From assembly GCA_041666185.1 (NCBI GenBank), contig JBAYHL010000001.1:2421-66420 (forward strand): a DNA stretch of 64,000 nt. The letters run 5' to 3'. The translations under genes were made by a program, and so were the position numbers. Positions 2,258 through 64,000 of this stretch are shown here, one piece after another; position 1 is the first letter of the stretch, and each line of letters begins with the position of its first letter. Source of the stretch: Patescibacteria group bacterium. Its GTDB lineage: Bacteria; Patescibacteriota; UBA1384; UBA12157; JAENIV01. The notes beneath the pieces were generated by a model. The model saw only the letters and a program-made list of their open reading frames with translations, had not been told where the DNA came from and made no database searches.

Positions 2258-3232
2258 TTATTTAACCCAAATCCTTAATGCATTCGACGGATTAAAACCT
2301 TCATATTCTGTTTGCACAATTTTACCCACAACCAAATCGGTTGGTTTAATACCATCAGTTATAATAGCACTGTCAGTTTTTTTAAAAGTAAGTGTTTTCT
2401 GAGACGAGGTTTCTAATATTATCACTTCCGACGGAGAAAAAGATACAACAGTTCCCAACGCTATAGCGGGTGTGTAACCAGTCTGTTTTTGATAGTCTGT
2501 TAAATTCTTCATATCGTAAGCATCTAAAGATAAAGGTTGTGCAGTATTGCTGCTAGCCGCAGAAGGACTACTTGTGGATGTTATGTCTTCGCCCGACCCC
2601 TTAAACCAATCATCTCTTTGTTTTTGAAGCTTTTCATTATCTTTTTTCGTTTCTATAGAATTATAAACAATAAAAAACACACCAACAGCTAAGAGAATAC
2701 AAATAATTATTTTAACAAGGGTTGAAAATTTATTCTTAATTGCTAAATATAAAAATATTAATAAATCAATAAAAATATTAGCAGTAAACAACAAATAAGC
2801 AAGCCCAGATGGAGATTCACATGTCCCTTCAATGCCGCAATAACTCATATGTCCAATTATCGCACTAATTGCAAGCTGGATGATAATTAAAGGTATAAAT
2901 TTTATAATGGTTATTGCTACCGAACTAGTCAATTTTTTATTAATCTTGCGTAAGATAAAAAATATTAAAAGTATGAACCCCACAGCGGTAATTAAAGGAA
3001 GTACTGATAATAAAAACACACTAATATTTTGATAATTTGTAGTTGAATTATTTATAAATATTTTATCAATAAATACACCTCTAATTATGTAATTAAAAAA
3101 TTGGGTACTAACAAAAACTCCAGCGAAAAAACTTATTATAATCATCCAACCAGTATTTAACTTGTCACTATTTTGTATTGTATTATTTTTTTGAGAACCA
3201 TTGTTTTCAGTCGTTGAGCGCGGTTGATTCAT
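2258..3232 (-). CDS. polytopic membrane protein with C-terminal extracytoplasmic domain, hypothetical
   Basis: Several hydrophobic helices then a Ser/Thr-rich linker and a beta-rich C-terminal domain. Confidence 0.5.
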   Translation of the reverse strand: MNQPRSTTENNGSQKNNTIQNSDKLNTGWMIIISFFAGVFVSTQFFNYIIRGVFIDKIFINNSTTNYQNISVFLLSVLPLITAVGFILLIFFILRKINKKLTSSVAITIIKFIPLIIIQLAISAIIGHMSYCGIEGTCESPSGLAYLLFTANIFIDLLIFLYLAIKNKFSTLVKIIICILLAVGVFFIVYNSIETKKDNEKLQKQRDDWFKGSGEDITSTSSPSAASSNTAQPLSLDAYDMKNLTDYQKQTGYTPAIALGTVVSFSPSEVIILETSSQKTLTFKKTDSAIITDGIKPTDLVVGKIVQTEYEGFNPSNALRIWVK

Positions 3233-6779: not shown

Positions 6780-6837
6780 TATGAGTATTTTATACCTAAA
6801 TTACCTGAGAATCAACTGAGAATGGGTACAAAAAAAA

Positions 6838-7185
6838 CCTTAAGCAATCGATAAGCCAGGTTTTGTTTTGACAGCATCTATCTAAGCGTCGGAACTCCTT
6901 GGACGTCAGGTCGAGTAAACCTTTGATGATGAATGGAGCCCATCCGACTTGCACTATGCAGGGTTTGCCCCGCGCTATGTCGCCATAGGCACGCGTGCGC
7001 TCTTACCGCACGATTTCAACCTTACCCTTCGACTCCACGCTTGCGCGTTTCGCTCAGGGCGGTATGTTTCTGTTGCACTTTCCCTAGGGTCACCCCCGGT
7101 CGTATTTAAACGACTACAACACTCTATAGTGCCTGGACTTTCCTCCCCGATTTAACATCGGGGTAACTGCCTCGATTACTTAAGG
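6838..7185 (-). ncRNA. rnpB: RNase P RNA (bacterial type A)
   Basis: On the minus strand: P4 GGAGGAAAGUCCAGGCAC; AAGUGCAACAGAAACAUACCGCC; GGUAAGGUUGAAAUCGUGCGGUAAGAGCGCAC; 3' ACAAAACCUGGCUUAUCGAUUGC. These align with the E. coli M1 RNA conserved blocks, and a P1 helix forms between the ends. Local GC is elevated. Confidence 0.9.
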
Positions 7186-28767: not shown

Positions 28768-29919
28768 TTGCGTATTGGCATTTTTACTGAATGTTATCAC
28801 CCGATTTTAAATGGCGTGGTTGTTTCTATTGATACTTTTAAAAGTGAACTAGAAAAGCGTGGCCATAAGTTTTTTATTTTCGCGCCTTCAAATAGTAAGT
28901 GCGAGGATAACCCTATTAATGTCTTTCGGTACCCAGCGCTTCCTTGGCCAAAAGACTATCCTTTAGCTTTCCCCTATCTAGCACCTTTACAACAAGCTCG
29001 AATTCAAGATTTAAGGCTAGATATTGTTCATACCCAACATATGTTTACTATGGGAAGATTAGGGTTAAGACTCTCTCGAAAATTAAATATTCCTATTGTT
29101 CACACTTACCACACTTTGATTTCCGAATATGTTCACTATGTTCCTCTTGTGCCCAAAAGCTTAACAAAGGCAGCTATCATCCATCTTACAAGGAATTACT
29201 GCAATAACTGCGATCAGATTGTTACTCCTTCACCTTCAATGCAAAAGATATTACGTTCTTATGGTGTCAAAAAACCAATTGAGGCCATTCCAACAGGAGT
29301 TTATTTAGAGAACCTTGCTGACCCTTACCATAAAGAGGTTTTGAAAACTAAATGGCAAATTCCAGAAAATAAAAAAATCCTTCTTTATGTTAGTCGAGTT
29401 GCTAAGGAAAAAAACCTTGATTTTCTTTTTCGAGTAATCAAAAAGTTGTCCGCAAAAAGGCAAGATTTCCACTTGTTAGTAGTAGGCGGTGGACCAGAAC
29501 TTGAACACTATCAAAACTTAGTTAAGACTCAGGAATTGTCTTCTTATGTTACCTTCACTGGTATGCAAGAAAAAAAGAAAGCTAATCGATTTTTTGGCGC
29601 TGCAGATATTTTTGTTTTTCCTTCTATTACGGAAACACAGGGAATTGTCATCACTGAAGCAATGGCCGCTGGCATTCCTGCTGTTGCAATAAATAAAATG
29701 GGACCATCTGATATTATTAAAGACGGTGTTGATGGTTTCCTCACACCATTGAATGTTGAAACCTTTTCTGCTAGAATAGAATCTCTTTTAGAAAACAGTG
29801 ATTTAAGAAAAACTTTCAGTCGCAACGCTAAAGAAAATGCGGAGAAATTTTCTGCCAAAGCATGCGCTGACAAAATGGAAAAACTTTATGAAAAAACAAT
29901 TAGTTACCATTCCGAATAA
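28768..29919 (+). CDS. GT4-family glycosyltransferase (TTG start)
   Basis: EX7E-type motif (ETQGIVITEAMAAGIPAVA), GGAGGGGAGGG SD. Confidence 0.8.
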   Translation: MRIGIFTECYHPILNGVVVSIDTFKSELEKRGHKFFIFAPSNSKCEDNPINVFRYPALPWPKDYPLAFPYLAPLQQARIQDLRLDIVHTQHMFTMGRLGLRLSRKLNIPIVHTYHTLISEYVHYVPLVPKSLTKAAIIHLTRNYCNNCDQIVTPSPSMQKILRSYGVKKPIEAIPTGVYLENLADPYHKEVLKTKWQIPENKKILLYVSRVAKEKNLDFLFRVIKKLSAKRQDFHLLVVGGGPELEHYQNLVKTQELSSYVTFTGMQEKKKANRFFGAADIFVFPSITETQGIVITEAMAAGIPAVAINKMGPSDIIKDGVDGFLTPLNVETFSARIESLLENSDLRKTFSRNAKENAEKFSAKACADKMEKLYEKTISYHSE

Positions 29920-31231
29920 GATACTTTCCGAGGTGACACAAAAAGTCACCTCTTTTGATAATAAAATTAAGACCCAAGTAGAATCAATGCGCTCTCTTTT
30001 AAAAACTCAGGACGGCGCAGGATTAGCTGCTAACCAAATTGGCGACAATAATCGCGTAATTGTTGTTGAGCTAGAAGACGAGAAAATAAAAAATTCTATT
30101 CCCTTCCAAGCCTTTATTAATCCGGAAATAGTTGAATGCTCCGAAGATAAAGACGATCTCGAAGAAGGATGTCTTTCTGTTCCTCAAATAGAACTACCGG
30201 TTGAAAGATCAACAAAAATTAAGATTCGTTTTCAAGATTTAGAAGGAAAAAAGAATAAATTAACTGCCAAAGATATTTTTGCTCGCATTCTTCAACACGA
30301 AATTGACCATTTAAATGGAATTATTTTTACCGAAAGGGTTAAAGAAAAATTTCTTGCAACGAATCCCAATTTAAAAAATATAAAAATTGCCTTTTTTGGC
30401 TCTGGTAACTTTGCCGCGACAATTTTAGAGGGGTTAATTTTATTAGGTCTTAAATTAGAAATTTTTACCGAAAGCGCTAAACCTTCCGGTCGTCATAAAG
30501 AAACAAAAACAACTCCAGTAGCGCAAATGGCGCAACGTTTTAGCAAAAAAGTAATTGAAGTTGACAATTTTTCAAATATTAAATCTAAAATTTCAGATCT
30601 CGATCTCTTGATTTGTACAGATTTCGGTCAAAAAATTCCCGTTGATATCTTAAAATTAGCAAAAATTACTGCCATTAACGTCCATCCTTCACTTTTACCA
30701 AAATATCGTGGACCAACACCAATTCAAACAGCAATTTTAGATGGTGCGAAAGAAACTGGCGTATCAATTATTAAAATGAGTGAAAAAATCGACGAAGGTG
30801 ATATTTTAGCTCAAATTAAAACTGATATATCCGAAGATGACAATAGCCTAACTTTGTCCAATATGTTGGCCACTCTTTCTTTAAAACTAATTTTTGAAGC
30901 TCTACCCTTAATCGTTAATGACCAACTTCAAAAATTAGAACAAAATGAAAAAAAAGCAACTTTAACCAAAAAGTTTCAAAAAGCTGACGGAGAAATTGAT
31001 TGGAATAAACAACCTGATCAAATTGAAAGACAAATTAGAGCTTTTTACCCTTGGCCAGGTTCTTATACATTCATAGGTGATCAAAGACTTATAATTCATA
31101 AGGCTCACATAACAGATGGCAAATTAGCCCTTGATATTGTTCAAGCAGAAGGCAAAAAACCTACAAAATGGTCTGATTTTCTACTCGGATTTCGCGGAGA
31201 AACACCTCAGTGGTTTGATAAAGTAAAATAA
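29888..31231 (+). CDS. def-fmt: fused peptide deformylase / methionyl-tRNA formyltransferase (Def-Fmt)
   Basis: Def motifs GAGLAANQIG, EGCLSVP, HEIDHLNG followed in-frame by Fmt motifs (IAFFGSGNFA, HPSLLPKYRGPTPIQ) in one 447-aa ORF. Confidence 0.8.
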   Translation: MKKQLVTIPNKILSEVTQKVTSFDNKIKTQVESMRSLLKTQDGAGLAANQIGDNNRVIVVELEDEKIKNSIPFQAFINPEIVECSEDKDDLEEGCLSVPQIELPVERSTKIKIRFQDLEGKKNKLTAKDIFARILQHEIDHLNGIIFTERVKEKFLATNPNLKNIKIAFFGSGNFAATILEGLILLGLKLEIFTESAKPSGRHKETKTTPVAQMAQRFSKKVIEVDNFSNIKSKISDLDLLICTDFGQKIPVDILKLAKITAINVHPSLLPKYRGPTPIQTAILDGAKETGVSIIKMSEKIDEGDILAQIKTDISEDDNSLTLSNMLATLSLKLIFEALPLIVNDQLQKLEQNEKKATLTKKFQKADGEIDWNKQPDQIERQIRAFYPWPGSYTFIGDQRLIIHKAHITDGKLALDIVQAEGKKPTKWSDFLLGFRGETPQWFDKVK

Positions 31232-47000: not shown

Positions 47001-47551
47001 TAATTTCCTTTCCTAAATTTTTCAATTATAATTCCCCGTTTTTCAGCTAGCTCCCTTGACTCCGGCTCAGCAGTAGTAGCTTTGCCGTCTGAACCGTCTA
47101 AAATTCTTAAATAATCATTTAAATAAATAATTTTTTTAACACCCAAATTATTTAATGCTTTCATACAGTCATAGCATGGAAAAACGGTAATATAGAGTGT
47201 TGAGCCACGCAACTGATTAACATCACCGGAATTAATAATAGCGTTAATTTCAGCATGAATACCATTACATCTTTTTATTTTACCAGTAATTGGATCGCCA
47301 TGGACTTTAAGACAACCAACTTCATTGCAATGAACGTCTCCTCTCGTAGGACCATTGTAACCAATTGAAATTATTCGATGGAGATCATCAACAAAGATAG
47401 CCACCGCTTTAACATAAATACAGGAGATTCTATTAGTAGCTGTCACTGCAATATCCATAAAAAATTCATCCCACGATATTCGAGGTCGTTTCTTAAATTT
47501 TTTCGGAGGTTTTTTGTCCATATTTTTTGACTCCTTTTTTTCTGTCCTCAT
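47000..47551 (-). CDS. dCMP/cytidine deaminase (ComEB-like)
   Basis: HAEINAI and PCYDCMKAL zinc-binding motifs. Confidence 0.85.
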   Translation of the reverse strand: MRTEKKESKNMDKKPPKKFKKRPRISWDEFFMDIAVTATNRISCIYVKAVAIFVDDLHRIISIGYNGPTRGDVHCNEVGCLKVHGDPITGKIKRCNGIHAEINAIINSGDVNQLRGSTLYITVFPCYDCMKALNNLGVKKIIYLNDYLRILDGSDGKATTAEPESRELAEKRGIIIEKFRKGN

Positions 47552-47600
47552 CTTAACAAAAACATTTCAAAAAAGTCAAAAAATCAGGTATAATTATGGT

Positions 47601-48020
47601 ATGAAAATAATCGCCCAAAACAAAAAAGCTTATCACGAATACGAAATTCTAGAAAAATTCGAAGCCGGTTTAGTACTTAATGGTACAGAAATTAAATCAA
47701 TTCGTAACGGCCGTGTGAATCTTTCGGGTACTTTTTGTCGTATTCAAAATAATGAACTCTGGGTTTTAAATTTGCATATTGCTAGCACATTAGAACCAGA
47801 ACGTACTCGAAAATTATTAGTTCATAAAAGCGAGATCAAATCTTTAATCGGCAAAACCCAGCAAAAAGGACTCACTCTTATTCCGTTAAGTCTTTACATT
47901 AAAAAAGGTAAAGCTAAATTAGAAATTGCTTTAGTTCGTGGTAAAAAAATTCACGATCAGCGCGAAACAATTAAAAAACGTGACACAAAAAGACAAGTTC
48001 AAAGAGAACTAAGCGAATAA
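47601..48020 (+). CDS. smpB: SsrA-binding protein
   Basis: MKIIAQNKKAYHEYEILEKFEAGLVLNGTEIKSIR; TTCAAA-17-TATAAT promoter ending 7 nt before the ATG. Confidence 0.85.
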   Translation: MKIIAQNKKAYHEYEILEKFEAGLVLNGTEIKSIRNGRVNLSGTFCRIQNNELWVLNLHIASTLEPERTRKLLVHKSEIKSLIGKTQQKGLTLIPLSLYIKKGKAKLEIALVRGKKIHDQRETIKKRDTKRQVQRELSE

Positions 48021-48609: not shown

Positions 48610-49232
48610 AACAAGACCTGAGTTTAGGCCCGCAACGAGAAAAAGGCTAAATGATAAATTTTTGATTAAAGGTGCAAAACAACGAGTATTTAGCCCGCCT
48701 TGACTTGGCGAGGCAGGTTTTTCATTTTTAAGATTTAAATTGATAAGGTTTTTTTTGTTTTTTTGTTGAAATAATTTCTGGTTAATAACTTTTACCAGAA
48801 GTCCCGGTTTTTCGGGTGTACAAATAATGAACCTCCATATTAAGAGAGTAATAACTGAATCCCGTCCTTTTTAATGTACCAAACAGTCAACTATTAACTC
48901 TGCGATCATGCTTTAAAGAATTTTAAAAAGGCGCTTTAAAGCACGACAATATCGATTTTACCATACTGGTTAAGTATGTCAAGGGTTATAATCACCCCTG
49001 TTAATCTTGGTATATCTTTTAACAACTCTGGACTGTGGATAACTTAAAAGCTGATTCCAACGCCTCAGGTCCTGAGGCGTTGGGCACAAATCAATGAATG
49101 GTTTAGATTGAATGGACAATATAATATCCCTTAAGTAATTAGCACCAATAGTTAGTCTTGACTTTTTTCCTATAATATGATACATTACTTTGTACTTGAA
49201 TCTTTCTGCAAATCTGACACAGGAGGTTAAAT

Positions 49233-49673
49233 ATGTCTTATCGCGATGAAATACAGAAAAAGGTAGATTTGGGTATTGCTTCGACAGTGGCTATTTGGAA
49301 AATGGTCACCAGCCATTCCGACGAATATCAAACAAGCCTCGGTCTCAATCAAGCAGGCGTAAAAGAGCTTGAAAGACAAAAGAGTCACATCAGTATGTAC
49401 CCGTCAATTGAAGACGAGCTTGCAAGCGCAATACTCAACATAGAGATTGATGGAGAACAGTTTGGCCTTGTTGTTAAGTATGTGTGTGGTTGTGAATACG
49501 GCGACACATGGAGAGAGTGCTTGATGGTTGGTTGTAAAAGCAACCCTTCTCTCAACCTAAGCGTTGGGTATGGGACAACTCTTGTTTTTGCCGTTTCAAA
49601 AGACTGGCACAAGAGAATAATTTCACATCTAACCGAAGCCGAAACTCCACCACCTCCGTGGTTTCCAAAGTAG
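49233..49673 (+). CDS. hypothetical protein (146 aa), GC-elevated
   Basis: GGAGG SD; followed by two hairpin terminators. Confidence 0.5.
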   Translation: MSYRDEIQKKVDLGIASTVAIWKMVTSHSDEYQTSLGLNQAGVKELERQKSHISMYPSIEDELASAILNIEIDGEQFGLVVKYVCGCEYGDTWRECLMVGCKSNPSLNLSVGYGTTLVFAVSKDWHKRIISHLTEAETPPPPWFPK

Positions 49674-49701
49674 TCAGCACGGTTTACGAACATTCCAATA
49701 T

Positions 49702-49775
49702 TTAATGACCTTGGTTTCGCAACTAAGGTCATTTTTTTATACAAAAAAAACAGGCTTTTTGACCTGTTCTTTTAA
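49702..49775 (+). terminator. tandem rho-independent terminators
   Basis: ATGACCTT-GGTTTCGCAACT-AAGGTCAT + T7, then ACAGG-CTTTTTGA-CCTGT + TCTTTT. Confidence 0.6.
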
Positions 49776-49778
49776 CAA

Positions 49779-50093
49779 TGGTGGAGCTGGGGGAAATTGC
49801 ATCCCCGTCCAAAAAAAGATCTAACAATCATTGACAAGTGTAAATTTTGCCTTTGTTTTCTTAATTTTACCTACTAAGACAACCTTGGTAAAAAGCAAGT
49901 TGATTTGTCATGCCCGATTCCAACCATTCAACTAACAATTGGGCGGACAGCGTTTAGCCTCGCGTTATGCTAAGGCTAGCGCAGGTGTATAAGCTGATTT
50001 GTTGCTTATTTTTTGCGACAAAATCTACGAGCTTATGTCGCCAGCTCGACTTGAAATTGTTTTTCTCTTTTCCTGTCGAATCTATACAGCCCC
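49779..50093 (-). ncRNA. ssrA: tmRNA (transfer-messenger RNA)
   Basis: Minus-strand 5' GGGGCUGUAUAGAUUCGACAGG and 3' GGACGGGGAUGCAAUUUCCCCCAGCUCCACCA match the tRNA-like domain. The acceptor is identical to E. coli (G3-U70). An internal frame ends ...GCU UAU ACA CCU GCG CUA GCC UUA GCA UAA (tag ending PALALA). Confidence 0.85.
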
Positions 50094-50126
50094 TTATTGA
50101 CTAGTATTGTAAACTGTTTAGAAGCA

Positions 50127-50156
50127 AAAGTCAAGATAAGCTATTCTCTTGACTTT
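50127..50156. promoter_or_regulatory. 10-bp perfect inverted repeat AAAGTCAAGA-N10-TCTTGACTTT overlapping the -35 (TTGACT) of the XRE/Hsp20 promoter
   Basis: TTGACT (50149-54), 17 nt, TACAAT (50172-77); the IR is centred on the promoter. Confidence 0.5.
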
Positions 50157-50191
50157 ATGTCAACTTTTCTTTACAATTGTCTCGAGACAAG

Positions 50192-50863
50192 ATGAAAATA
50201 TATATCACTCATATTTCTAAAAAAATAAGAAATCTTCGCGAAGAAAAAAAACTTACCCAAGAAGAATTGGCGGAAAAATTAGGAATTTCCAGGCAATCAA
50301 TTATTTCTGTTGAAAAAGGTAAATGTTTGCCATCGCTGCCTTTAGCCCTTAGAATGTCTGAACTTTTTAATTTAGCTTTCGACGAAATCTTCGGATCCCA
50401 AAATAACCATAAAGAAAAAGGAGTAAACATTATGCCACACTATCTATCACCCCTGTCACCTTTTGGCGACCTCGACCGAATCTTCGAAGACGAAGAAAAC
50501 ACGCCAACTTGGCCTGCACGCCGCGGTTTTTCATATCCGGCCATCAATATTAAACAAACTGCCAAAGATATTATTTTAACCGCTGATATTCCTGGCATTA
50601 AAGAAGATGAATTAGAAATTGAAGTAGGACGAGATTTTGTTAATATTTCCGGCGCACGTCAAGAAGAAGAAAAACAAGAAGAGGAAGGCTACTTTAGACA
50701 AGAAGTCCGCTATGGTTCATTTGCCCGACGTCTTTCGTTACCAATCGAAATTAGAACCGACAAAGCCGAGGCAACAATTAAAGATGGTATTTTAAAACTC
50801 GTAATGCCAAAATTAGAAATTGCCAAACCAAAGGTTACCAAAATCAAAATTAAGAAATCTTAA
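50192..50863 (+). CDS. XRE-family HTH domain fused in-frame to an Hsp20/alpha-crystallin small heat-shock domain
   Basis: N-terminal LTQEELAEKLGISRQSIISVEKGK (Cro/C1 HTH). From the internal Met (50432, preceded by AAAGGAG) a full Hsp20 domain follows (FSYPAINIKQT...EGYFRQEVRYGSFARRLSLP...LKLVMPK). No stop separates them. Confidence 0.7.
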   Translation: MKIYITHISKKIRNLREEKKLTQEELAEKLGISRQSIISVEKGKCLPSLPLALRMSELFNLAFDEIFGSQNNHKEKGVNIMPHYLSPLSPFGDLDRIFEDEENTPTWPARRGFSYPAINIKQTAKDIILTADIPGIKEDELEIEVGRDFVNISGARQEEEKQEEEGYFRQEVRYGSFARRLSLPIEIRTDKAEATIKDGILKLVMPKLEIAKPKVTKIKIKKS

Positions 50864-50907: not shown

Positions 50908-51549
50908 ATGAGACTTAAACCTTATATTATTGGTATTACCGGGGGAACTGCTTCAGGCAAAACTTTTGTCATTGAAGCTTTAAAAGACTATTTTGACGGA
51001 AAAATTTTAGTTATTTCCCAAGACCAATATTTTAAAGGCGAGAGCGCTAAACAGCTTGATCGTTGGGAAAGAGCTAATCTTGACCAACCAAAAGCTTTTG
51101 ATAATGAATTATTAGAAAAACATTTAAAATTACTTTTATCAAAAAAAACGGTTTTAGCACCAGTTTATGATTTTGCTCGCCACAAACAAGCTAAAGCAAA
51201 AGTACCGCTTGAGCCAAAACCAGTTATCATTTTAGAAGGAATTTTAATTTTTAATAATCCTGAAATTCGCAATTTGATTGATTTAAAAATTTATCTAGAA
51301 GCCGATCCGGACATTCGTTTAGCCAGACGTTTACTCCGCGACATTGAAGAGCGCGGCGTTACAATTGAAAATCTTCGATCTTCAATTGAATGGTATGTTC
51401 AAAAAGTTAAACCAATGCACGACAAATATATTCACCCAATGAAACAATATGCCGATATGCGACTAGACACCAATAAAGGTTCACTAGAAGCAGCTAATAC
51501 AGTTCAAGAAAGAGTTAAAGAAATCCTTAAAAAATACGAAGAAAAGTAA
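50908..51549 (+). CDS. udk: uridine kinase
   Basis: P-loop IIGITGGTASGKT, PRK/udk family. Confidence 0.85.
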   Translation: MRLKPYIIGITGGTASGKTFVIEALKDYFDGKILVISQDQYFKGESAKQLDRWERANLDQPKAFDNELLEKHLKLLLSKKTVLAPVYDFARHKQAKAKVPLEPKPVIILEGILIFNNPEIRNLIDLKIYLEADPDIRLARRLLRDIEERGVTIENLRSSIEWYVQKVKPMHDKYIHPMKQYADMRLDTNKGSLEAANTVQERVKEILKKYEEK

Positions 51550-51639: not shown

Positions 51640-52014
51640 TTACGCTTTCCATAAACCATGGACATTGCAATACTCACGAACAATTATATTATTAGCACTA
51701 ATTGAAAATTCAGCCTCTGGGCTGTCTTTTGGTTTTAAATGTTTACGATAAATCTTACCATCGGCAATTATTTCAATCCATTGAATATAATGTTTTTCTT
51801 CCATTGGATGAGGTACTGAGCCAACGCTAACTTTAATTTTACCACCAACATTTTCAACCACTGGCACGTGTTTTTCCTTGCCTTCGTCTTCGGTTTTTTC
51901 AACTTGAAGTTTCATTGGTTGACCACAACAAACTAGTTCGCCACCACCAGCAAATAAAACTTCGACAATATTTCCACAAACATTGCATTTGTAAACCTGG
52001 TTTTGAGTAATCAT
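51640..52014 (-). CDS. dfx: desulfoferrodoxin / 2Fe superoxide reductase
   Basis: N-terminal desulforedoxin CNVCGN...CCG and centre II His/Cys ligands (HVPV, HPMEEKH, CNVHG). Confidence 0.8.
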
Positions 52015-57468: not shown

Positions 57469-57544
57469 TGGTGCCCTCGGCAGGAGTTGAACCTGTAACC
57501 TCTTCCTTAGGACGGAATCGCTCTATCCATTGAGCTACGAGGGC
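57469..57544 (-). tRNA. tRNA-Arg (anticodon CCU), CCA encoded
   Basis: Minus strand: GCCCUCG acceptor, anticodon loop GUCCUAA, T-loop GUUCAACUC. Confidence 0.75.
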
Positions 57545-59197
57545 TTATCTCATATAGATTTTATCACATTTGTAAGATATAATAAAAAGGATTTCGGGGT
57601 GTAGCGCAGCCCGGTAGCGCGCATCGTTCGGGACGATGAGGTCGGAAGTTCGAATCTTCTCACCCCGACCAAGAGTGACAGTTTCAGGTTTTATATTCAA
57701 AATGCTCTTATAGCACGGATTAATTTCGGTGTTCAAATACCCGGGATAGTTCCAGACCAATCCTGATGGGAATATTGAACACAAGAGCATTCTCTTCTGT
57801 TGTAAGTCTGAATTTTGATAAGTATTCGCCAAGTTTTTGAACTTTTCGCGAATAAAAACTGTCACATCTTCAATATTATACTTTGTGATTAAATCGTCAT
57901 CTTTCGCTATTTGGATTGTGGCGATTTTTTGTTCCAAAATCCTATTTTGTTCTTTGAATATGTCATCGGAATAAATACCAGCCAGATTTTTCTCAATTAA
58001 GGCCTGGCGGGTTTCATAGAGCTTTTTAAGCTCATCATCAGCCTGTTCTCGCCTTTTTTGTAGTGTTGCGACCCTGTGATAATAAGTTTTTCGCAGATAA
58101 GTTCCTGTTAACTCCAGAGCTTTATCAGTCATACTAACACTATCAAGAAGATTTGTTGTTGCTTCTTCTAATTCATCCATAGGCACAGAATGGCCTTTGC
58201 CACACCATTTTTGACAAAAGTAATAAGCATACCTCTGCATTTTTCCTTTGCTCCAGCCAGCCGTCAGAGATGACCCGCAACCGCTGCATTTAACAATTCG
58301 GCGTAGCGGAAAATCTTCGTTATCACGATTTTTCTTAGCGAATGGTTTGGCAATATTAACATTTCGTCCATCTAAAATGGCCTGTATACGATAGAATTGT
58401 TCTTCGGTCACCATTGGCGTATGCTGCCCCTGGACTTCTTGCTTATATTTTTTGGACACCAATTTTCCTGTATAGAACTTATTGCGGAACATTCGCTGGA
58501 TTGTTTGCGCCTTAACCTTGAATTCTCTACCCGTTCGATACTTAACTTTTATACCCTTCTCATCCATGATCTTTGCCATCTCTCGTAGTGATTTGGTTCC
58601 CGTCGCCATAAGCTCCCATGCTTCTTTTAATTTATCGAAAGCCTTGGGGTCTTTGGTCACATAGCCGTTTTCATTTAAATAGCCCAACGGGGCCAAACTC
58701 GAAGGAAGCCCCGAAAGGAACCGAGCTCGCAATCCATTCTTGGCTCGTTCTCCTCGCACATCATTATCCATCTGGGCAAAACCAGCCAGCATCGTTTCAA
58801 CAAACTTTTCAGTCGGACTATTGCCTGTTGGCTCCGAAGCTGAAATCAAACTAATCTCACTCTCGGCCAACTTTTTGCGAATTACCAAATAGTCAGCAGT
58901 TTGACGGGAAATACGATCTAGTCGATAGACTATGACCGCCCCGACTTCTTTCTTGTGTTTTCGGCAATATTCAAGCATTTGTAAAAGTACCGGACGACCA
59001 GAAATAGTTTTTGCCGATCGGCCTTCTTCGCGGAAAATCTGGTCGACCGTTAGCTTTCTTCTAGTGGCCTCTTTTGTGCAGATATCTTCCTGCGTTGCGA
59101 GAGAATAATTTTCAATTTGCTCTTCGCTAGAAACGCGAATATACATTACCGCATGTTCGGTTTTGTTCGGTTTTTGGCTAAAAAAAGATTGGTTCAT
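57545..59197 (-). CDS. large serine recombinase (resolvase catalytic domain + recombinase domain + zinc ribbon/coiled-coil)
   Basis: [12 protein letters not shown] catalytic Ser motif, RLDRISR, Cys-rich CSGCGS...CQKWC; the ORF reads antisense through tRNA-Pro before its stop. Confidence 0.85.
57595..57671 (+). tRNA. tRNA-Pro (anticodon CGG), CCA encoded
   Basis: CGGGGUG acceptor, anticodon stem CAUCG/CGAUG with loop UUCGGGA, T-loop GUUCGAAUC. Confidence 0.8.
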
Positions 59198-59458
59198 TTA
59201 TCCCTCCCTCAATAACTCTTCTAGAGTTAAACTATTAAATGTTTGTTTCTCGTACTCATCCAGCCAGCTATCCAATAGATATTGGAATTGAGTAATATAG
59301 ACGGCTAACTCTTCATCCTGTATATCTTTAACTATTTCTCCCAAAACTGCCCGAGCTTTCTGCACTTTGTTTTCTTCCGGTGATTCAGGGAAGATGTAAA
59401 AAGAATTCTCCAAAGTCTTAAACTTTACCCCTTCCATTGGTTGTAGAACATTATTCAT
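59198..59458 (-). CDS. small acidic hypothetical protein (86 aa) immediately upstream of the recombinase
   Basis: Tightly coupled (stop/start adjacent); GGAGGGCG SD. Confidence 0.45.
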   Translation of the reverse strand: MNNVLQPMEGVKFKTLENSFYIFPESPEENKVQKARAVLGEIVKDIQDEELAVYITQFQYLLDSWLDEYEKQTFNSLTLEELLREG

Positions 59459-59470
59459 ACGCCCTCCTAA

Positions 59471-59510
59471 CTAGTATTATATACCTAGTATACTAGGTAT
59501 ATAATACTAG
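59471..59510. repeat. 40-bp perfect palindrome CTAGTATTATATACCTAGTA|TACTAGGTATATAATACTAG
   Basis: Exact dyad symmetry; contains TATAAT-like hexamers; lies between the recombinase module and the T4SS module. Confidence 0.9.
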
Positions 59511-59596
59511 TGTCAAGAGAGTAATTAAACCTGTTGTTAGTAATTTATTGAACACCAAAAAGACTTTTCCACAGGTTAAAGTTTATAAAATGAAAA

Positions 59597-60262
59597 TCAG
59601 CTTTGAGAATTTATGATTTGTTGCGGAGGGTTTGCGGGTGGATCGCCTGTTAAGAATACTCTCGGATTAACAGGTATCCCGAAGACTTTTATTTCGAAGT
59701 GTAAATGAGGGCCGGTTGACCAACCTGTATTGCCTCTAGCGCCTATAATAGTGCCAACTACAACCTCATCTCCCTCCTGCACTGCGATACTATCCAAATG
59801 AGCATAGATTGATGTTATATGATGTCCATTGTCGATTTCTACATGTTTGCCAAATCCCCAAGAAGTTTCTCCGGCATAAATAACTTTACCAGCCATAAAA
59901 GCGCCGACAGGGTCGCCGACTTCGTGATTTGGGCTGGCAATATCAATGCCGGTATGGAACGGGTCGTAGGGCAAAAAGACTTGCCCGAATTCAAGAGTAA
60001 CCGGCCCGTTTATAGGCCACATAACAGAAGTTTCTACATGATCAATAATAGCTCCAGTGGCGGGGTCGTGAATATCCACCTGAGTCGTTTGAGGATCGTT
60101 TGATACCAGAACCCCTGAAACTGCGTCTATTCCGACTTGGGTTAACATAAATACCGCTATCACAGGCAGTAGACATACGGCTATGAGAGTTAAGAATATG
60201 ATTTTAATCTCCTGCTTCATGGAGAAAGCAAGAGCGATGTATCGTATTGCAGTCACGTTCAT
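59597..60262 (-). CDS. M23 family peptidase (LytM), membrane anchored; likely T4SS-associated cell-wall hydrolase
   Basis: HTGIDIA...HLHFEI motifs; N-terminal TM. Confidence 0.8.
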   Translation of the reverse strand: MNVTAIRYIALAFSMKQEIKIIFLTLIAVCLLPVIAVFMLTQVGIDAVSGVLVSNDPQTTQVDIHDPATGAIIDHVETSVMWPINGPVTLEFGQVFLPYDPFHTGIDIASPNHEVGDPVGAFMAGKVIYAGETSWGFGKHVEIDNGHHITSIYAHLDSIAVQEGDEVVVGTIIGARGNTGWSTGPHLHFEIKVFGIPVNPRVFLTGDPPANPPQQIINSQS

Positions 60263-62046
60263 TATTTCACCCTAGCTAATTCCGCTGGGTCAGTAGTAAT
60301 AAGCGGATGCTCGTTTTCCGAGGCAGTTACTTTAACTGCGACATGGTGCTGGTCGGCGATTATTAAAGCTTCGCCCCGCTCGCAGGTCAATAAAAACTTT
60401 TGTTCATATTCGCTTAGCTTAAATTCCGAGGCCACTTTGTTGATTGTAGTGGTATCTTGCCTCATTAAGATTCTTAGGGCGCTTTGAGAAGCGATCGCTT
60501 GCCCATAGGCATTTTGTAGGAAATCATTTGCTTGCTGAGAGATGATAGACACTCCCAAGTAATACTTTCGAGCTCGTCTAACTAATCCGGCGATAAATCG
60601 GGCACTTTCTTCATGTTCAAGCAAAAGCCATGCTTCATCAATAATCAATAAGCGTTTTTGCATGAATGCTTTTACTTGGTTTTGGACGAATTGGGCGATG
60701 ACCAAATGCATCAGCTGGCGAAGCGACTCGGGCAAATCTTTAGTATCGAAAACCACCAACCTATTATCCAGTTCCAAATTAGTCTGGGAATTAAATACTT
60801 CCGCTAATGAGCCGGTGGTGTATTTTTCCAATCTTCGGCAAAGCTTTGTCTGTTTCAACGATTTAAGTGTCATATAGAAATCGTATAGAAGAGGATAAAT
60901 TTGAGTTTCTCTTTTCTTTGGTTTTTTAGATGACCAGCCGAACTTCTTATAAGTTTGTAATATTGCTTGGTCAACAACTGATTTTTCTTCGGCAGATAAT
61001 CCCTCTGCCATTAGAGAAATTATTTCTGTTAAAGATTGAACATGGTCGGAAAAACTATCCGGCTCGGTGAAGGCATTGACTGATAGATCAAACGGATTTA
61101 TTTTTTCATCAGAATGAACAGAGAGCTTAATATATGTGCCCTTGACCGATTCGGCTAATCTTCGATATTCCCGTTCAGGATCGATCACTAAAATTTTTGT
61201 GCCTTGCATTAAATGGCGCAGAATTTCCACTTTGGCGGTGTAGCTTTTGCCGGCTCCTGATTGGGCGAATAAAATACTGTTGGCATTAGGCAAAGCAAAT
61301 CTGTCCACTATAACAAGAGAGTTATTTGAGCGGTTGATTCCATATAAAATGCCCGATTCCTGGACATATTCAGAGGAGATGAAAGGAAAAGTCATGGCTG
61401 CCGATGAACTGTCTAAGTTTCTCTTTTGAGCCAGTTGGTTATCTCCGCGAGGCAAGACCGACTGCAAACCCTCCAACTGCTGATACATTGCGGTTTTAGT
61501 ATAAAATAGTCTGGTCGCCAATACTGTTTCGAGCAATTTCGTTACTTTGTCTAAGTCGATAAGATTGTCAGCTGCCAGGGCGATGTAGAGCGAAACTTGG
61601 AAGAGATTTTCCTGCCCTCGCTGGATTTTATCCCGCAGTTCGATGGCCGAGTCCAGCGGATCGGTCAGTTCGGAGCCGACAATTTTGCCATCCCTCTCCA
61701 TCGCTCTTTTAGTGGAAATGAGTTCAGTGATTTTACGATTAAGTTTTGGCAGAGCTAAAGTGGCGTCGACCGGCTCGATATGATAGGAAATATCGACATT
61801 ATGGTTGAAGTTAATTAAATGGTTAAGCCAGCCGCTAGAAGCGGTGTAGGGATAGCCCGAAACGAAAAGAGTTCTTAAATATCTTCCGTCAATCACGATA
61901 TGATCGCTTTCTTCCTGAAGTCCAGAGTAAGTTATGAAATCCAACTGGTCTTGCTCGCCGAATTGAAAATTCAGCACTTTCTGCCTTTCGAGCTTTTTAT
62001 CCTTCTTTTTGGGCTTGGTTTTTACTTTAGAAAAAATTTTGTTCAT
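60262..62046 (-). CDS. VirB4/TrbE/PrgJ-family conjugative ATPase (ATPase portion)
   Basis: Walker A SGAGKS, Walker B IIDEAWLLL, arginine-finger region RRARKYYLGVSIISQQ. Confidence 0.8.
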   Translation of the reverse strand: MNKIFSKVKTKPKKKDKKLERQKVLNFQFGEQDQLDFITYSGLQEESDHIVIDGRYLRTLFVSGYPYTASSGWLNHLINFNHNVDISYHIEPVDATLALPKLNRKITELISTKRAMERDGKIVGSELTDPLDSAIELRDKIQRGQENLFQVSLYIALAADNLIDLDKVTKLLETVLATRLFYTKTAMYQQLEGLQSVLPRGDNQLAQKRNLDSSSAAMTFPFISSEYVQESGILYGINRSNNSLVIVDRFALPNANSILFAQSGAGKSYTAKVEILRHLMQGTKILVIDPEREYRRLAESVKGTYIKLSVHSDEKINPFDLSVNAFTEPDSFSDHVQSLTEIISLMAEGLSAEEKSVVDQAILQTYKKFGWSSKKPKKRETQIYPLLYDFYMTLKSLKQTKLCRRLEKYTTGSLAEVFNSQTNLELDNRLVVFDTKDLPESLRQLMHLVIAQFVQNQVKAFMQKRLLIIDEAWLLLEHEESARFIAGLVRRARKYYLGVSIISQQANDFLQNAYGQAIASQSALRILMRQDTTTINKVASEFKLSEYEQKFLLTCERGEALIIADQHHVAVKVTASENEHPLITTDPAELARVK

Positions 62047-62647
62047 TTGTTTGCCTCGCTATTGCCTGAGCAAGCGGCTGAGTTTTGGCTTGATCGGGCT
62101 TATAAAAGCTATAAAATAGGTCTAATATCTCCAAGCCGGTGATTTGCCTTGCCGACATGCCGATTTTCTCCATGCCCTTGATGATTATCTCCTGCTCAAG
62201 AAGCAAATGCTCTTTGGCGATATAAAATTCACTGGCCGTCTTATTGTTATAGGGAATTACGACATAAAATTTTCTGGATAAAATCTTATTGCCGGAGATC
62301 AGTTTTCTAATGAATTTGCTGTAATTCTTCATTTGCTCCAAATAAATTTCTTCGGTTTCATCCGAGCAGGATTCCTGGATATTTTCCAAATACTTTTCGA
62401 TATCCAACTCTCTAATGCGAATCAATATTTGCAATGGAATTGTTAAGGAGTTTAGGAATGATTGAAAATTGTCGATTAAAACATCCTGTTCTTCTTCGCT
62501 TTGCAATTCGAAGTTTAAGGACGACACCGACAAGATCGAACGATAACTGTTGTCTGACAGAACCAAGATATTGTCTCTGATTTCTTTTATTCCGATCTGG
62601 CTTCTGGCCGAGCCCTTATTCTTCGCTTGCTGCAACTGAAACATCAA
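62027..62647 (-). CDS. VirB4 N-terminal (CagE_TrbE_VirB-like) domain as a separate ORF
   Basis: IRDNILVLSDNSYRSILSVSSLNFELQSEEEQ...FLNSLTIPLQIL matches the VirB4 N-domain pattern; 20-nt overlap with the ATPase ORF. Confidence 0.55.
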   Translation of the reverse strand: MMFQLQQAKNKGSARSQIGIKEIRDNILVLSDNSYRSILSVSSLNFELQSEEEQDVLIDNFQSFLNSLTIPLQILIRIRELDIEKYLENIQESCSDETEEIYLEQMKNYSKFIRKLISGNKILSRKFYVVIPYNNKTASEFYIAKEHLLLEQEIIIKGMEKIGMSARQITGLEILDLFYSFYKPDQAKTQPLAQAIARQTNEQNFF

Positions 62648-63128
62648 TGCCTCCTTTCTTGGCCAGGCCGAAGCGGAAATTAAGCGATGGGTTGCCCAGC
62701 AGCCTGTCGATTTTGACCTGGTCTTCTAGTGAAACAGCATATCTCAATTTTTTCTCTTGCTTTGTTTCTTTGACGACAGTTTTCTTCCTTTCTTCAGTGA
62801 AAGCGATAGCTTCTCCTGCTCGGCTGGCTAAATCATTTTTAGTAAAAATGTATATTCTCGGTCTTAGCTTGAAGCGAAGTAGAATAACCAGCCAATCTAT
62901 TAGAATTTTCCCTTTAATTCGGATAGCCAAAGTGCCGAAAACCAGAAATTGCAGGCCGATTAGAATTAGTTTAATTAAACTGAAACGCGAACTCGGCGGG
63001 ATTAAGACATAAACCGCTGTGCTTGTAATGAGAGGTATAACCAGCATAATAATTTGCGTAAATGTCAGATTGCCGGCGATTCGGTCTTCAACCGTTGTTA
63101 TCTGTGCCGGTACGACTGTTGTTTTCAT
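62616..63128 (-). CDS. VirB3/PrgI-like small membrane protein
   Basis: Two TM helices near the N-terminus; position immediately upstream of VirB4. Confidence 0.45.
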   Translation of the reverse strand: MKTTVVPAQITTVEDRIAGNLTFTQIIMLVIPLITSTAVYVLIPPSSRFSLIKLILIGLQFLVFGTLAIRIKGKILIDWLVILLRFKLRPRIYIFTKNDLASRAGEAIAFTEERKKTVVKETKQEKKLRYAVSLEDQVKIDRLLGNPSLNFRFGLAKKGGIDVSVAASEE

Positions 63129-63997
63129 TTTACCCTCGCAGTCTGTTTAATTGTTTGATGAGTGGCAACTTTTGATACAGTATTGCCGCCTGGGCTTAAA
63201 ACATTTAATATTTGTGAACCGAACTTTCTAAACATTCCGCTATTTTGCGATGTTAGAACCAACTGAATCATCGTCGAGCTGCTTTTGAGAAGCACTGAAA
63301 AGAGAGCAATTCCGACTAAAGCGGCGATAAACGGGTTGGAGCCCTCCTGGCCTGGAATAGTTAGAAAAGCTGAGGCCAGCTGAATTAACACGACATGAAC
63401 GAATAAAGTAAATATCATCACCAAGTATGCTTTAGCGGCGCTTTCGGCAAAGCCGGTCGCCTTAGGAATGAGCCACAAAAGGCAAAGGATTGGTGAAATG
63501 ACCGCTCCGAAAGCAAGAATCATCAATCGGCTAATGTAGAAGAGAAGAAGCACGACCGCCAGCACAATGAATATGACAAGGAATATCAGGGTAATGAGCG
63601 CAGTCGTTCCGCTTAATAATGCTGCAGGATCAAAAGCATTCAAAATCCACGCCTGTCCCAATCCGCCCGTCGCACCAAGCACAGCATGTATCAAAACTTG
63701 GCAGAGCTTGATAAACCAATCGATCAAGAAGATTGAGGTATTAGCTAGTAAGAAGGATAAGCCGATCTTCGGCAGAAGTTCCTTTAAGGACAGTTCTTCA
63801 AATCCGAATGAAGAAGCGCTCATAACATGGAATCCTAAAAGGGCGATTACCAGAACATAGAGCGAATCGGTTATTCCGACTATGATCAGCCAGAAATTAA
63901 ATACCACTGAATTGGTTGCCAGTGTCGGCGTATTGGTTAAAAATCCCATAATGCCGTCCATTATTGGTTTAGTGGCTGATTGGACGATATTTTTCAA
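63125..63997 (-). CDS. VirB6/TrbL/PrgH-like polytopic membrane protein (start near window edge, possibly incomplete)
   Basis: At least six hydrophobic helices; upstream of VirB3/VirB4 as in Gram-positive T4SS loci. Confidence 0.5.
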   Translation of the reverse strand: MKNIVQSATKPIMDGIMGFLTNTPTLATNSVVFNFWLIIVGITDSLYVLVIALLGFHVMSASSFGFEELSLKELLPKIGLSFLLANTSIFLIDWFIKLCQVLIHAVLGATGGLGQAWILNAFDPAALLSGTTALITLIFLVIFIVLAVVLLLFYISRLMILAFGAVISPILCLLWLIPKATGFAESAAKAYLVMIFTLFVHVVLIQLASAFLTIPGQEGSNPFIAALVGIALFSVLLKSSSTMIQLVLTSQNSGMFRKFGSQILNVLSPGGNTVSKVATHQTIKQTARVK

Positions 63998-64000
63998 GAA

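Follow-up and report, generated by a model that had tools for sequence, protein, structure and literature searches.

Control of heat-shock genes by chaperone titration is a textbook principle, in which the chaperone and the repressor are normally separate molecules. Can the two be joined in one protein that acts on its own promoter? This question is raised by the gene hth-hsp20, which is located in a 64-kb stretch of contig JBAYHL010000001.1 from a Patescibacteria group bacterium (assembly GCA_041666185.1, positions 2,421 to 66,420 of the forward strand; the whole stretch is referred to here as the window). The gene encodes an XRE (Cro/C1)-type helix-turn-helix (HTH) DNA-binding domain and a small heat-shock protein (sHSP) of the Hsp20 family in a single chain, designated HTH-sHSP. 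Comparison with its relatives suggests that hth-hsp20 is probably an autoregulatory stress module consisting of one polypeptide, namely an autorepressor whose chaperone half would sense proteotoxic stress. What appears to be new is that an sHSP is covalently joined to a DNA-binding domain, together with a conserved candidate operator of its own and a dual-start design.

Domain structure of HTH-sHSP

The hth-hsp20 frame is open without interruption from the ATG at 50192 to the stop codon at 50861-50863, and its product comprises 223 amino acids (aa). The listing of open reading frames (ORFs) reaches back to a TTG at 50177, yet the homologues begin with MKIYI. Both domains are matched along practically their entire Pfam models. 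The HTH_3 match covers model positions 1-55 of 55 (E-value 3e-14, 53.2 bits against a cut-off of 23), and the HSP20 match covers positions 2-102 of 102 (E-value 1.7e-19, 70.2 bits against a cut-off of 20.8). The features of the locus are collected in Table 1.

Table 1. Features of the hth-hsp20 locus, with positions counted from the first nucleotide of the window.
Feature	Position	Strand	Basis or description
tmRNA gene ssrA	49779..50093	-	Rfam RF00023, full length, 114.2 bits against a gathering threshold of 47
ssrA promoter, TTGACT (50134-50129), 17 nt, TACAAT (50111-50106)	50106..50134	-	promoter scan
Perfect 10-bp inverted repeat, AAAGTCAAGA (50127-50136) and TCTTGACTTT (50147-50156), 10-nt spacer	50127..50156		back-to-back extended -35 boxes
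hth-hsp20 promoter, TTGACT (50149-50154), 17-nt spacer, TACAAT	50149..50177	+	10 of 12 consensus positions matched
Candidate operator, window copy TGTCAAC-TTTT-CTTTACA (consensus TGTAAAG-N4-CTTTACA, 18 bp; TGTAAAGTTTACTTTACA)	50158..50175	+	orthologue alignment
Second palindrome TTGTCTCGAGACAA, perfect, 14 bp, between -10 and ATG	50177..50190		read from sequence
hth-hsp20 gene, full-length XRE-HTH-sHSP fusion, 223 codons and stop	50192..50863	+	ORF reading, Pfam
XRE/Cro-C1-type HTH domain, aa 12-66	50225..50389	+	Pfam HTH_3 (PF01381)
Disordered linker and sHSP N-terminal region, aa 70-113	50399..50530	+	AlphaFold2, alignment
Internal Shine-Dalgarno sequence AAAAAGGAG within linker codons	50415..50423	+	duplex energy with canonical anti-Shine-Dalgarno sequence
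Predicted short isoform, free canonical sHSP, 143 aa (Met81-Ser223)	50432..50863	+	conservation of internal Shine-Dalgarno sequence and ATG
Alpha-crystallin domain, aa 120-221, with C-terminal I-K-I (IXI) motif, aa 218-220	50549..50854	+	Pfam HSP20 (PF00011)

An AlphaFold2 model, run on an alignment of 26 sequences, predicts an HTH domain of five helices (residues 2-18, 23-30, 34-41, 49-59, and 63-67), with a predicted local distance difference test score (pLDDT) of about 90 over residues 1-67. The alpha-crystallin domain (ACD) is predicted as a beta-sandwich spanning residues 118-207, with a pLDDT of about 85. These two confident domains are joined by a disordered stretch of roughly 50 residues, in which the pLDDT is below 50 at residues 70-94 and 98-113. 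The residues R16, T22, Q23, E24, G31, R34, Q35, S36, E41, and G43 of the HTH domain are invariant among 26 homologues. The solved HTH structures nearest to residues 10-69 are those of a PbsX-family regulator (9k3w, E-value 1e-11) and CylR2 (1utx, E-value 6e-9), which are stand-alone XRE-type proteins of 65-66 aa, in contrast to the fused domain of HTH-sHSP. For the ACD, the nearest solved structures are HspA (6ewn, E-value 1e-17) and wheat Hsp16.9 (1gme). A sequence search of the PDB revealed no solved structure with an HTH and an alpha-crystallin domain in one chain.

sHSPs are characterised by an ACD beta-sandwich of about 90 residues, a flanking N-terminal region, and a C-terminal I/V-x-I/V motif for oligomer assembly, and as a family they are heat-inducible holdases that need no ATP. 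From Met81 onwards, HTH-sHSP contains a complete canonical bacterial sHSP with an N-terminal WSPFGD block, the ACD, an AxxxDGxL motif, and a C-terminal IXI motif. The AxxxDGxL motif is conserved, as is I218-K219-I220, which lies inside a KVTKIKIKK tail. The region of aa 70-113 differs in length among the homologues and is highly gapped in the alignment, the exception being a conserved MPxxLxPWSPFGDLDRFF block after Met81. The protein thus satisfies the sequence definitions of both the Hsp20 and the XRE families. An earlier interpretation of this DNA, the sequence-only reading, had described an XRE-type HTH fused in frame to a complete Hsp20 domain. This description holds, as there is a single open frame, both Pfam cut-offs are exceeded, and the architecture is a conserved family trait.

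Distribution of the fusion

A search of 5.8 billion proteins returned 175 relatives, and the following figures were derived from the best 120, which share 36-100% identity. A length of at least 185 aa was found for 116 of these 120, nearly all of which carry both HTH_3 and HSP20. More than 100 clusters at 90% identity show the HTH-sHSP architecture, and their named sources are metagenomes of Patescibacteria or Berkelbacteria. Among 1.84 billion representatives at 50% identity, a profile search identified about 58 proteins with a length of 190-260 aa that align over their whole extent, and about 16 further proteins matched both domains in two stretches. Overall, about 60-75 of these representatives contain the two domains. 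An identical protein, P0001, is annotated as 'Hsp20 family protein [Patescibacteria group bacterium]', and the named sources of the other relatives are Berkelbacteria and unclassified Patescibacteria. NCBIfam holds no model for an HTH-Hsp20 fusion, all matches being below the cut-offs, and no publication describing such a fusion was found in full-text searches of the literature.

A sequencing or assembly error that deletes a stop codon could merge adjacent xre and hsp20 genes into an apparent fusion, and some database Hsp20 proteins of 142-146 aa (P0086, P0094, P0096, and P0118) do begin at the internal methionine of HTH-sHSP. However, P0094 (L114, 408-839) and P0118 (L117, 406-846) have the HTH domain encoded in frame just upstream, the gene caller having taken the internal start, and P0086 (L108, 16-444) starts only 15 nucleotides (nt) away from a contig end, the contig being covered 1x. 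Stand-alone hsp20 relatives were considered as separate genes, and every case examined turned out to be either a contig-end truncation or an internal-start gene call. Relatives were checked for separate versus fused genes, as the sequence-only reading had advised; they are fused, and no stop codon separates the two domains. A single in-frame stop was observed, and it is located in the first 3 nt of a 1x-coverage contig. The frame is open in all of the more than 100 independent clusters, which stem from varied samples and assemblers. On these grounds, an artefact appears to be effectively refuted, and HTH-sHSP is well supported by comparison of sequences. As short Hsp20 proteins are called despite an in-frame upstream HTH, the databases under-report the fusion.

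A conserved palindrome in the promoter

XRE regulators bind as dimers to a palindromic operator, typically in their own promoter. Alignment of the regions upstream of the hth-hsp20 orthologues revealed the palindrome TGTAAAG-N4-CTTTACA, with half-site centres 11 bp apart. It is found in 25 of 25 orthologous loci, with 20 exact copies, two copies with one mismatch, and three with two mismatches. The 14 arm positions are invariant or nearly so in these loci and the four central bases vary freely, a classic pattern for sites that are recognised by a symmetric dimer. An exact match to the consensus is found in 15 fused loci, with a single copy per locus that invariably lies just ahead of the gene, and 88 non-fused Hsp20/HTH loci have none.

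The position of the palindrome relative to the promoter is fixed in 21 of the 25 loci. Here the order is TTGACA, 3 nt, TGTAAAG, N4, and CTT-TACAAT, so that the palindrome fills the spacer and its right arm supplies the -10 box. In these loci it lies upstream of the expected transcription start and must therefore act on DNA, not on RNA. The other four loci (L001, L104, L105, and L113) have a different promoter with TGnTATAAT upstream, and the intact palindrome is located just downstream of the -10 box, 2-20 nt before the ATG. Its preservation downstream of another promoter indicates that the palindrome is conserved independently of a role as -10 box.

The copy in the window sits between the -35 and -10 boxes. 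Its right arm is perfect and overlaps the -10 box, and its left arm matches the consensus at five of seven positions. It is the sole site with up to two mismatches to the consensus in the 64 kb. The degenerate left arm TGTCAAC suggests weaker repression in this genome. The recognition region of the HTH domain, GISRQSIISVEKG, is unchanged in the genomes with a variant left arm. A second palindrome, TTGTCTCGAGACAA, is centred on the expected transcription start. Its counterpart is TTATCTCGAGATAA in L107, with a symmetric double change, and TTATCTCGAGACAA in L109, a one-sided intermediate. Palindromes of this type are missing in L112 and in more distant loci, and are confined to the subclade with the degenerate left operator arm.

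The presence of the TGTAAAG-N4-CTTTACA palindrome in the promoter of every orthologue examined strongly suggests autoregulation. The sequence-only reading had also proposed autoregulation, and the conserved promoter element lends support to this part of it, although the element is a different one from the repeat at 50127-50156 that had been put forward.

The inverted repeat between hth-hsp20 and ssrA

In the sequence-only reading, the -35 box of hth-hsp20 was placed inside a perfect 10-bp inverted repeat, which was taken to be the operator. Repeat and -35 box are indeed found there, but the left arm of the repeat is the -35 box of a divergent promoter, that of the transfer-messenger RNA (tmRNA) gene ssrA. 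The two arms are the extended -35 elements (TCTTGAC) of ssrA and hth-hsp20, and the two -10 hexamers form an outer second repeat. On the minus strand, the -10 box ends 12 nt upstream of the mature 5' end of the tmRNA (50093). Perfect 10-bp inverted repeats with a spacer of up to 20 nt are common in the window, with 46 overlapping matches at about 19 distinct sites, mostly terminator hairpins, where Markov shuffles of the window lead to an expectation of about four. The repeat is therefore unremarkable by itself, and it is its position that matters.

Binding of the HTH domain to this repeat as its operator would fit with the perfect arms, with their overlap with the -35 box, and with a similar pair of arms in L107. 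However, the left arm is at the correct 17-nt distance to TACAAT, and at the correct distance to the tmRNA 5' end, for a -35 box of ssrA. It is missing in L109, the closest relative (83% identity), in which ssrA is located upstream in the same orientation. In L107 (70% identity), in which ssrA is divergent, the arms match at eight of ten positions and the spacer is 7 nt, compared to 10 nt in the window. The loci L001, L004, and L005 have a divergent ssrA too, yet lack a repeat of this type. Altogether, it is not present in 22 other orthologous loci, which share the different palindrome described above instead, and the repeat is thus missing upstream of most orthologues. The loss of the arm in L109 and the shifted spacer in L107 argue for two independent -35 boxes rather than a dimer-binding site, and an operator function of the repeat is considered highly improbable. 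A reading of the repeat as a CtsR-like or other known heat-shock operator was also considered, and was dropped once both arms had been explained as -35 boxes.

A predicted internal translation start

A strong internal Shine-Dalgarno (SD) sequence with an ATG had been noted in the sequence-only reading as a possible source of free Hsp20. Both elements were located as described, with GGAG at 50420-50423, a spacer of 8 nt, and ATG at 50432-50434, and they are conserved at the nucleotide level across the orthologues. Scored against an assumed canonical anti-SD sequence, the internal SD of the window reaches -8.4 kcal/mol and is the strongest of the gene, compared to -3.0 kcal/mol for the first start. 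In the orthologues, motifs similar to AAGGAGGTGA are located 5-9 nt ahead of the equivalent ATG, with -11.5 to -13.2 kcal/mol. In 14 of 16 loci, the internal SD (-8.4 to -13.2 kcal/mol) outranks every other SD-like site of the gene, and it surpasses the SD of the first start (+0.9 to -10.6 kcal/mol) in every locus in which both were scored.

The SD motif occurs in three codon registers, namely AAA GGA GGT GAA (KGGE), GAG GAG GTG AGG (EEVR, in L007), and GGA AAG GAG GCA (GKEA, in L025). As the SD is kept while the encoded peptide changes register, selection acts on the nucleotides. The internal methionine is found in 108 of the 116 full-length homologues, amid an otherwise poorly conserved linker, and it is precisely here that alignments with ordinary 140-150-aa sHSPs begin (profile positions 84-88). 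Gene finders picked the internal start in L114 and L117, rating the internal ribosome-binding site above the first. In the window, 14 nt lie between the -10 box and the first ATG. The simplest reading is that one mRNA would yield little HTH-sHSP from a weak or near-leaderless first start and more free 143-aa sHSP from the internal start.

In some orthologues, such as L004 (about 2978-3003) and L117 (about 130-152), the HTH frame follows a strong GGAGG without an ATG at normal spacing (GGAGGTTAAGATAATTAAA...). The start may be an upstream GTG or a rare ATA or ATT, which would also keep the long isoform low.

RNA structures at the internal start were considered as well. An RNA thermometer or other SD-sequestering structure was searched for with RNAalifold in 21 orthologous segments (-35 to +59), which yielded no consensus pairs and led to its rejection. 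Folds of single sequences pair the internal SD with the Ser-Pro-Phe codons in a few loci only. A hairpin of the SPFGD codons, GTCNCC-TTTT-GGN'GAC (50455-50470; A3 columns 62-77), showed apparent compensatory synonymous changes, but was rejected as not significant, since 64 of 500 shuffles reached the observed covariation score.

The conservation of the internal start also bears on a simpler view of the protein, in which it is an ordinary XRE autorepressor with the ACD as a mere dimerisation or oligomerisation module. Chaperone function and stress sensing would then be absent, and the internal SD would be a relic of an xre-hsp20 operon. XRE HTH domains depend on a partner domain for pairing, and dimerisation is a function of ACDs. 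In addition, XRE regulators with varied C-terminal domains are common, such as XRE-cupin proteins (PMC7901475). However, the sHSP part is complete beyond the needs of dimerisation, with its client-binding region WSPFGDLDRFF, its AxxxDGxL motif, and its IXI motif for oligomerisation. The internal SD and ATG persist in relatives with as little as about 36% protein identity, and also where the codon register has shifted, which indicates continuing selection rather than a relic. This simpler view is therefore judged unlikely.

Proposed mechanism

The picture of a stress module in which a chaperone is tethered to its own repressor, as sketched in the sequence-only reading, can reasonably be inferred from these features. 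The mechanism that we propose is as follows. The full-length protein would be paired or multimerised through its ACD, placing two HTH domains on the palindrome. In this position it would occupy the spacer and the -10 box and block RNA polymerase, resulting in negative autoregulation. The weak first start would provide small amounts of HTH-sHSP, and the strong internal SD larger amounts of the free 143-aa sHSP. The ACD and the IXI motif would allow the short and full-length forms to assemble with each other. Upon a build-up of unfolded proteins, client complexes may draw in the sHSP parts of the two isoforms, or the oligomers may dissociate. The HTH domains would then lose their pairing or leave the DNA, and the promoter would be derepressed until free sHSP is again in excess. 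Such a module would correspond to chaperone-titration feedback, but at the level of transcription and with a covalent tether.

The derepression under stress is the least secure part of this mechanism, in its sign as well. We infer stress sensing by the sHSP half only from its covalent link to a complete sHSP. In the most specific form of this idea, HTH-sHSP would be a one-component sensor of proteotoxic stress of a kind not described before, in which client binding or oligomer dissociation would directly switch the HTH domain off the operator and the internal start would set the ratio of the long form (sensor) to the short form (effector or buffer). This version is offered tentatively, at somewhat less than even chances.

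Several points weigh against the stress module. Heat-driven dissociation of sHSP oligomers into dimers could favour DNA binding instead. The operator of the window has two mismatches in one arm, which are common to L107 and L109, and that of L112 has one (TGTCAAG); protein binding at the operator of the window may be weak or altered. The conserved internal SD could have been left over from an operon of two genes in an ancestor, or could serve as a pause site, and the anti-SD sequence used for scoring is the canonical one by assumption, the 16S rRNA gene being located outside the window. Finally, a search for a second operator found none in the 64-kb window (up to two mismatches), in the flanks of about 3 kb on either side of the gene in the orthologous loci, or in the 10 kb by which L118 extends past the window. 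Matches with three mismatches occur in the window at chance level.

The last point is also relevant to a broader role, in which HTH-sHSP would be a master regulator of the heat-shock response, with the palindrome also located in front of other chaperone or protease genes, as for HrcA with CIRCE or HspR with HAIR. The candidate operator shows very strong conservation, a trait of CIRCE and HAIR too, and the contig measures at least 225 kb, whereas the inspected DNA, including L118, which reaches 10 kb past the right end of the window, amounts to only about 74 kb. However, all of the inspected DNA, including the flanks in 25 loci, contains exactly one site per locus, and such a master regulator is considered rather improbable. 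Chaperone genes were not found among the large ORFs tested in the window.

Comparison with known systems

In the HspR-DnaK and HrcA-GroEL systems, the activity of a repressor at a promoter palindrome depends on how much chaperone is available, which results in homeostatic feedback. These chaperone-titrated heat-shock repressors were reportedly reviewed by Roncarati and Scarlato in 2017. The likeness to hth-hsp20 lies in the candidate operator in the promoter of the controlled heat-shock gene, which overlaps the -10 box in 21 of 25 loci and is located just downstream in four. In HspR and HrcA systems, however, the chaperone is a separate, ATP-dependent machine that acts in trans, whereas the sHSP of HTH-sHSP, a predicted ATP-independent chaperone, is covalently attached. 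HspR, which is MerR-like, and HrcA also belong to other repressor families and use other operators (HAIR and CIRCE).

Long and N-terminally truncated forms from one ORF are known for the Tn5 transposase and its inhibitor and for ClpB (95 and 80 kDa), the short form arising from an internal SD and ATG. Short forms of this type lack the N-terminal DNA-binding or substrate domain and co-assemble with the long form. hth-hsp20 resembles these examples in its conserved internal ATG with an SD at functional spacing, although the families are unrelated and the short product of hth-hsp20 is a prediction.

RheA of Streptomyces albus is described as repressing hsp18 and itself at a site that covers the -10 box and the transcription start (PMC11754652, citing Servant et al. 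2000). As far as that account goes, it shares with the module proposed for HTH-sHSP a dedicated repressor of an sHSP gene with negative autoregulation, an operator over the -10 box, and a narrow, apparently single-target regulon. In contrast, RheA and HSP18 are presented there as separate proteins from divergent genes, with RheA itself being the thermosensor and lacking a chaperone domain. In hth-hsp20, the putative repressor and the sHSP form one polypeptide with a second, predicted internal start, and the likeness appears to be functional and architectural only.

Two archaeal proteins, HSR1 of Archaeoglobus fulgidus and Phr of Pyrococcus furiosus, are autoregulated HTH repressors of hsp20. 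HSR1 shares an operon with hsp20 and binds the palindrome CTAAC-N5-GTTAG in its own promoter (PMC9133787). This operon is the unfused equivalent of the hth-hsp20 arrangement. Unlike HTH-sHSP, HSR1 and Phr are winged-helix and not XRE proteins, are encoded by genes separate from hsp20, recognise another operator sequence, and have no dual-start mRNA.

The logic proposed for HTH-sHSP, in which an sHSP is the sensor of aggregation for its own synthesis, is also found in IbpA of Escherichia coli. The free IbpA oligomer represses its own synthesis, and sequestration into aggregates relieves this repression (Miwa, Chadani and Taguchi; 10.1101/2020.04.20.050740; PMC10474464). IbpA acts during translation on its mRNA's 5' untranslated region and has no DNA-binding domain, whereas HTH-sHSP has an HTH domain and a conserved DNA palindrome in its promoter.

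Genomic neighbourhood and further features of the window

The gene order around hth-hsp20 is smpB (47514-48020), a CHAP-domain gene, ssrA, hth-hsp20, a gene of the PRK/uridine kinase family (50908-51549), tRNA-Val, and a desulfoferrodoxin gene (51640-52014). The synteny from smpB to tRNA-Val is kept in L001, L003-L008, L010-L012, L104, L105, L107, and L112. ssrA is the immediate upstream neighbour in L001, L004, L005, and L107, and in the remaining related loci that were scanned it lies no more than about 2.8 kb upstream. Its orientation relative to hth-hsp20 flips between genomes. The two genes diverge in the window and in L107, L001, L004, and L005, and point the same way in L006, L105, and L109.

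Between the CHAP gene and the 3' end of ssrA, there is a gap of about 1.17 kb (48610-49778) without a recognisable gene, which measures about 420 nt in L107. It contains an ORF of 146 aa (49233-49673) without a Pfam match and GC-rich hairpins at 49057-49074 and 49704-49733. The 3' end of tmRNA genes is a common integration site, and the gap may be an insertion beside it.

Elsewhere in the window, a 464-aa ORF on the plus strand (29837-31231) joins a Pep_deformylase domain (aa 20-170) to the Formyl_trans_N and Formyl_trans_C domains (aa 183-427) of a methionyl-tRNA formyltransferase. Most bacteria have def and fmt as two distinct genes next to each other. From about 57469 to 64000, an element resembling an integrative conjugative element lies beside tRNA-Arg and tRNA-Pro. 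It contains a large serine recombinase gene (57545-59197), a Peptidase_M23 gene, a gene for a TraG/HerA-like ATPase (60262-62046), and TraC-like and PrgI-like genes. The related contig L118 continues the element with a type IV secretion system pilin/TrbC, a DUF87 ATPase, and a relaxase. At 59471-59501, there is a perfect palindrome of about 31 bp. A bacterial class A RNase P RNA gene is encoded on the minus strand at 6837-7182 (Rfam RF00010, 173.7 bits), and the window contains five tRNA genes. The RNase P RNA and tRNA genes are ordinary housekeeping content, consistent with a chromosomal origin.

Significance

The coupling of chaperone and repressor is hard to dissect when the two are separate molecules, whereas here both are found in one polypeptide of 223 residues. 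One gene with one promoter, including the 18-bp candidate operator and the predicted second isoform, could suffice to rebuild the feedback loop. Such a system would directly test whether transcription can report on how an sHSP is assembled. If the proposed mechanism is true, the self-regulation recently discovered for E. coli IbpA at the RNA level would be extended to DNA. The module is also a candidate for a compact aggregation or heat biosensor. For annotation, the analysis shows that the 'Hsp20' proteins of about 143 aa which databases list for this clade result from truncated gene calls. For the Patescibacteria, which are uncultured and have very small genomes, hth-hsp20 offers a first handle on stress regulation, and, if the mechanism holds, HTH-sHSP could be the minimal heat-shock circuit of these reduced genomes.

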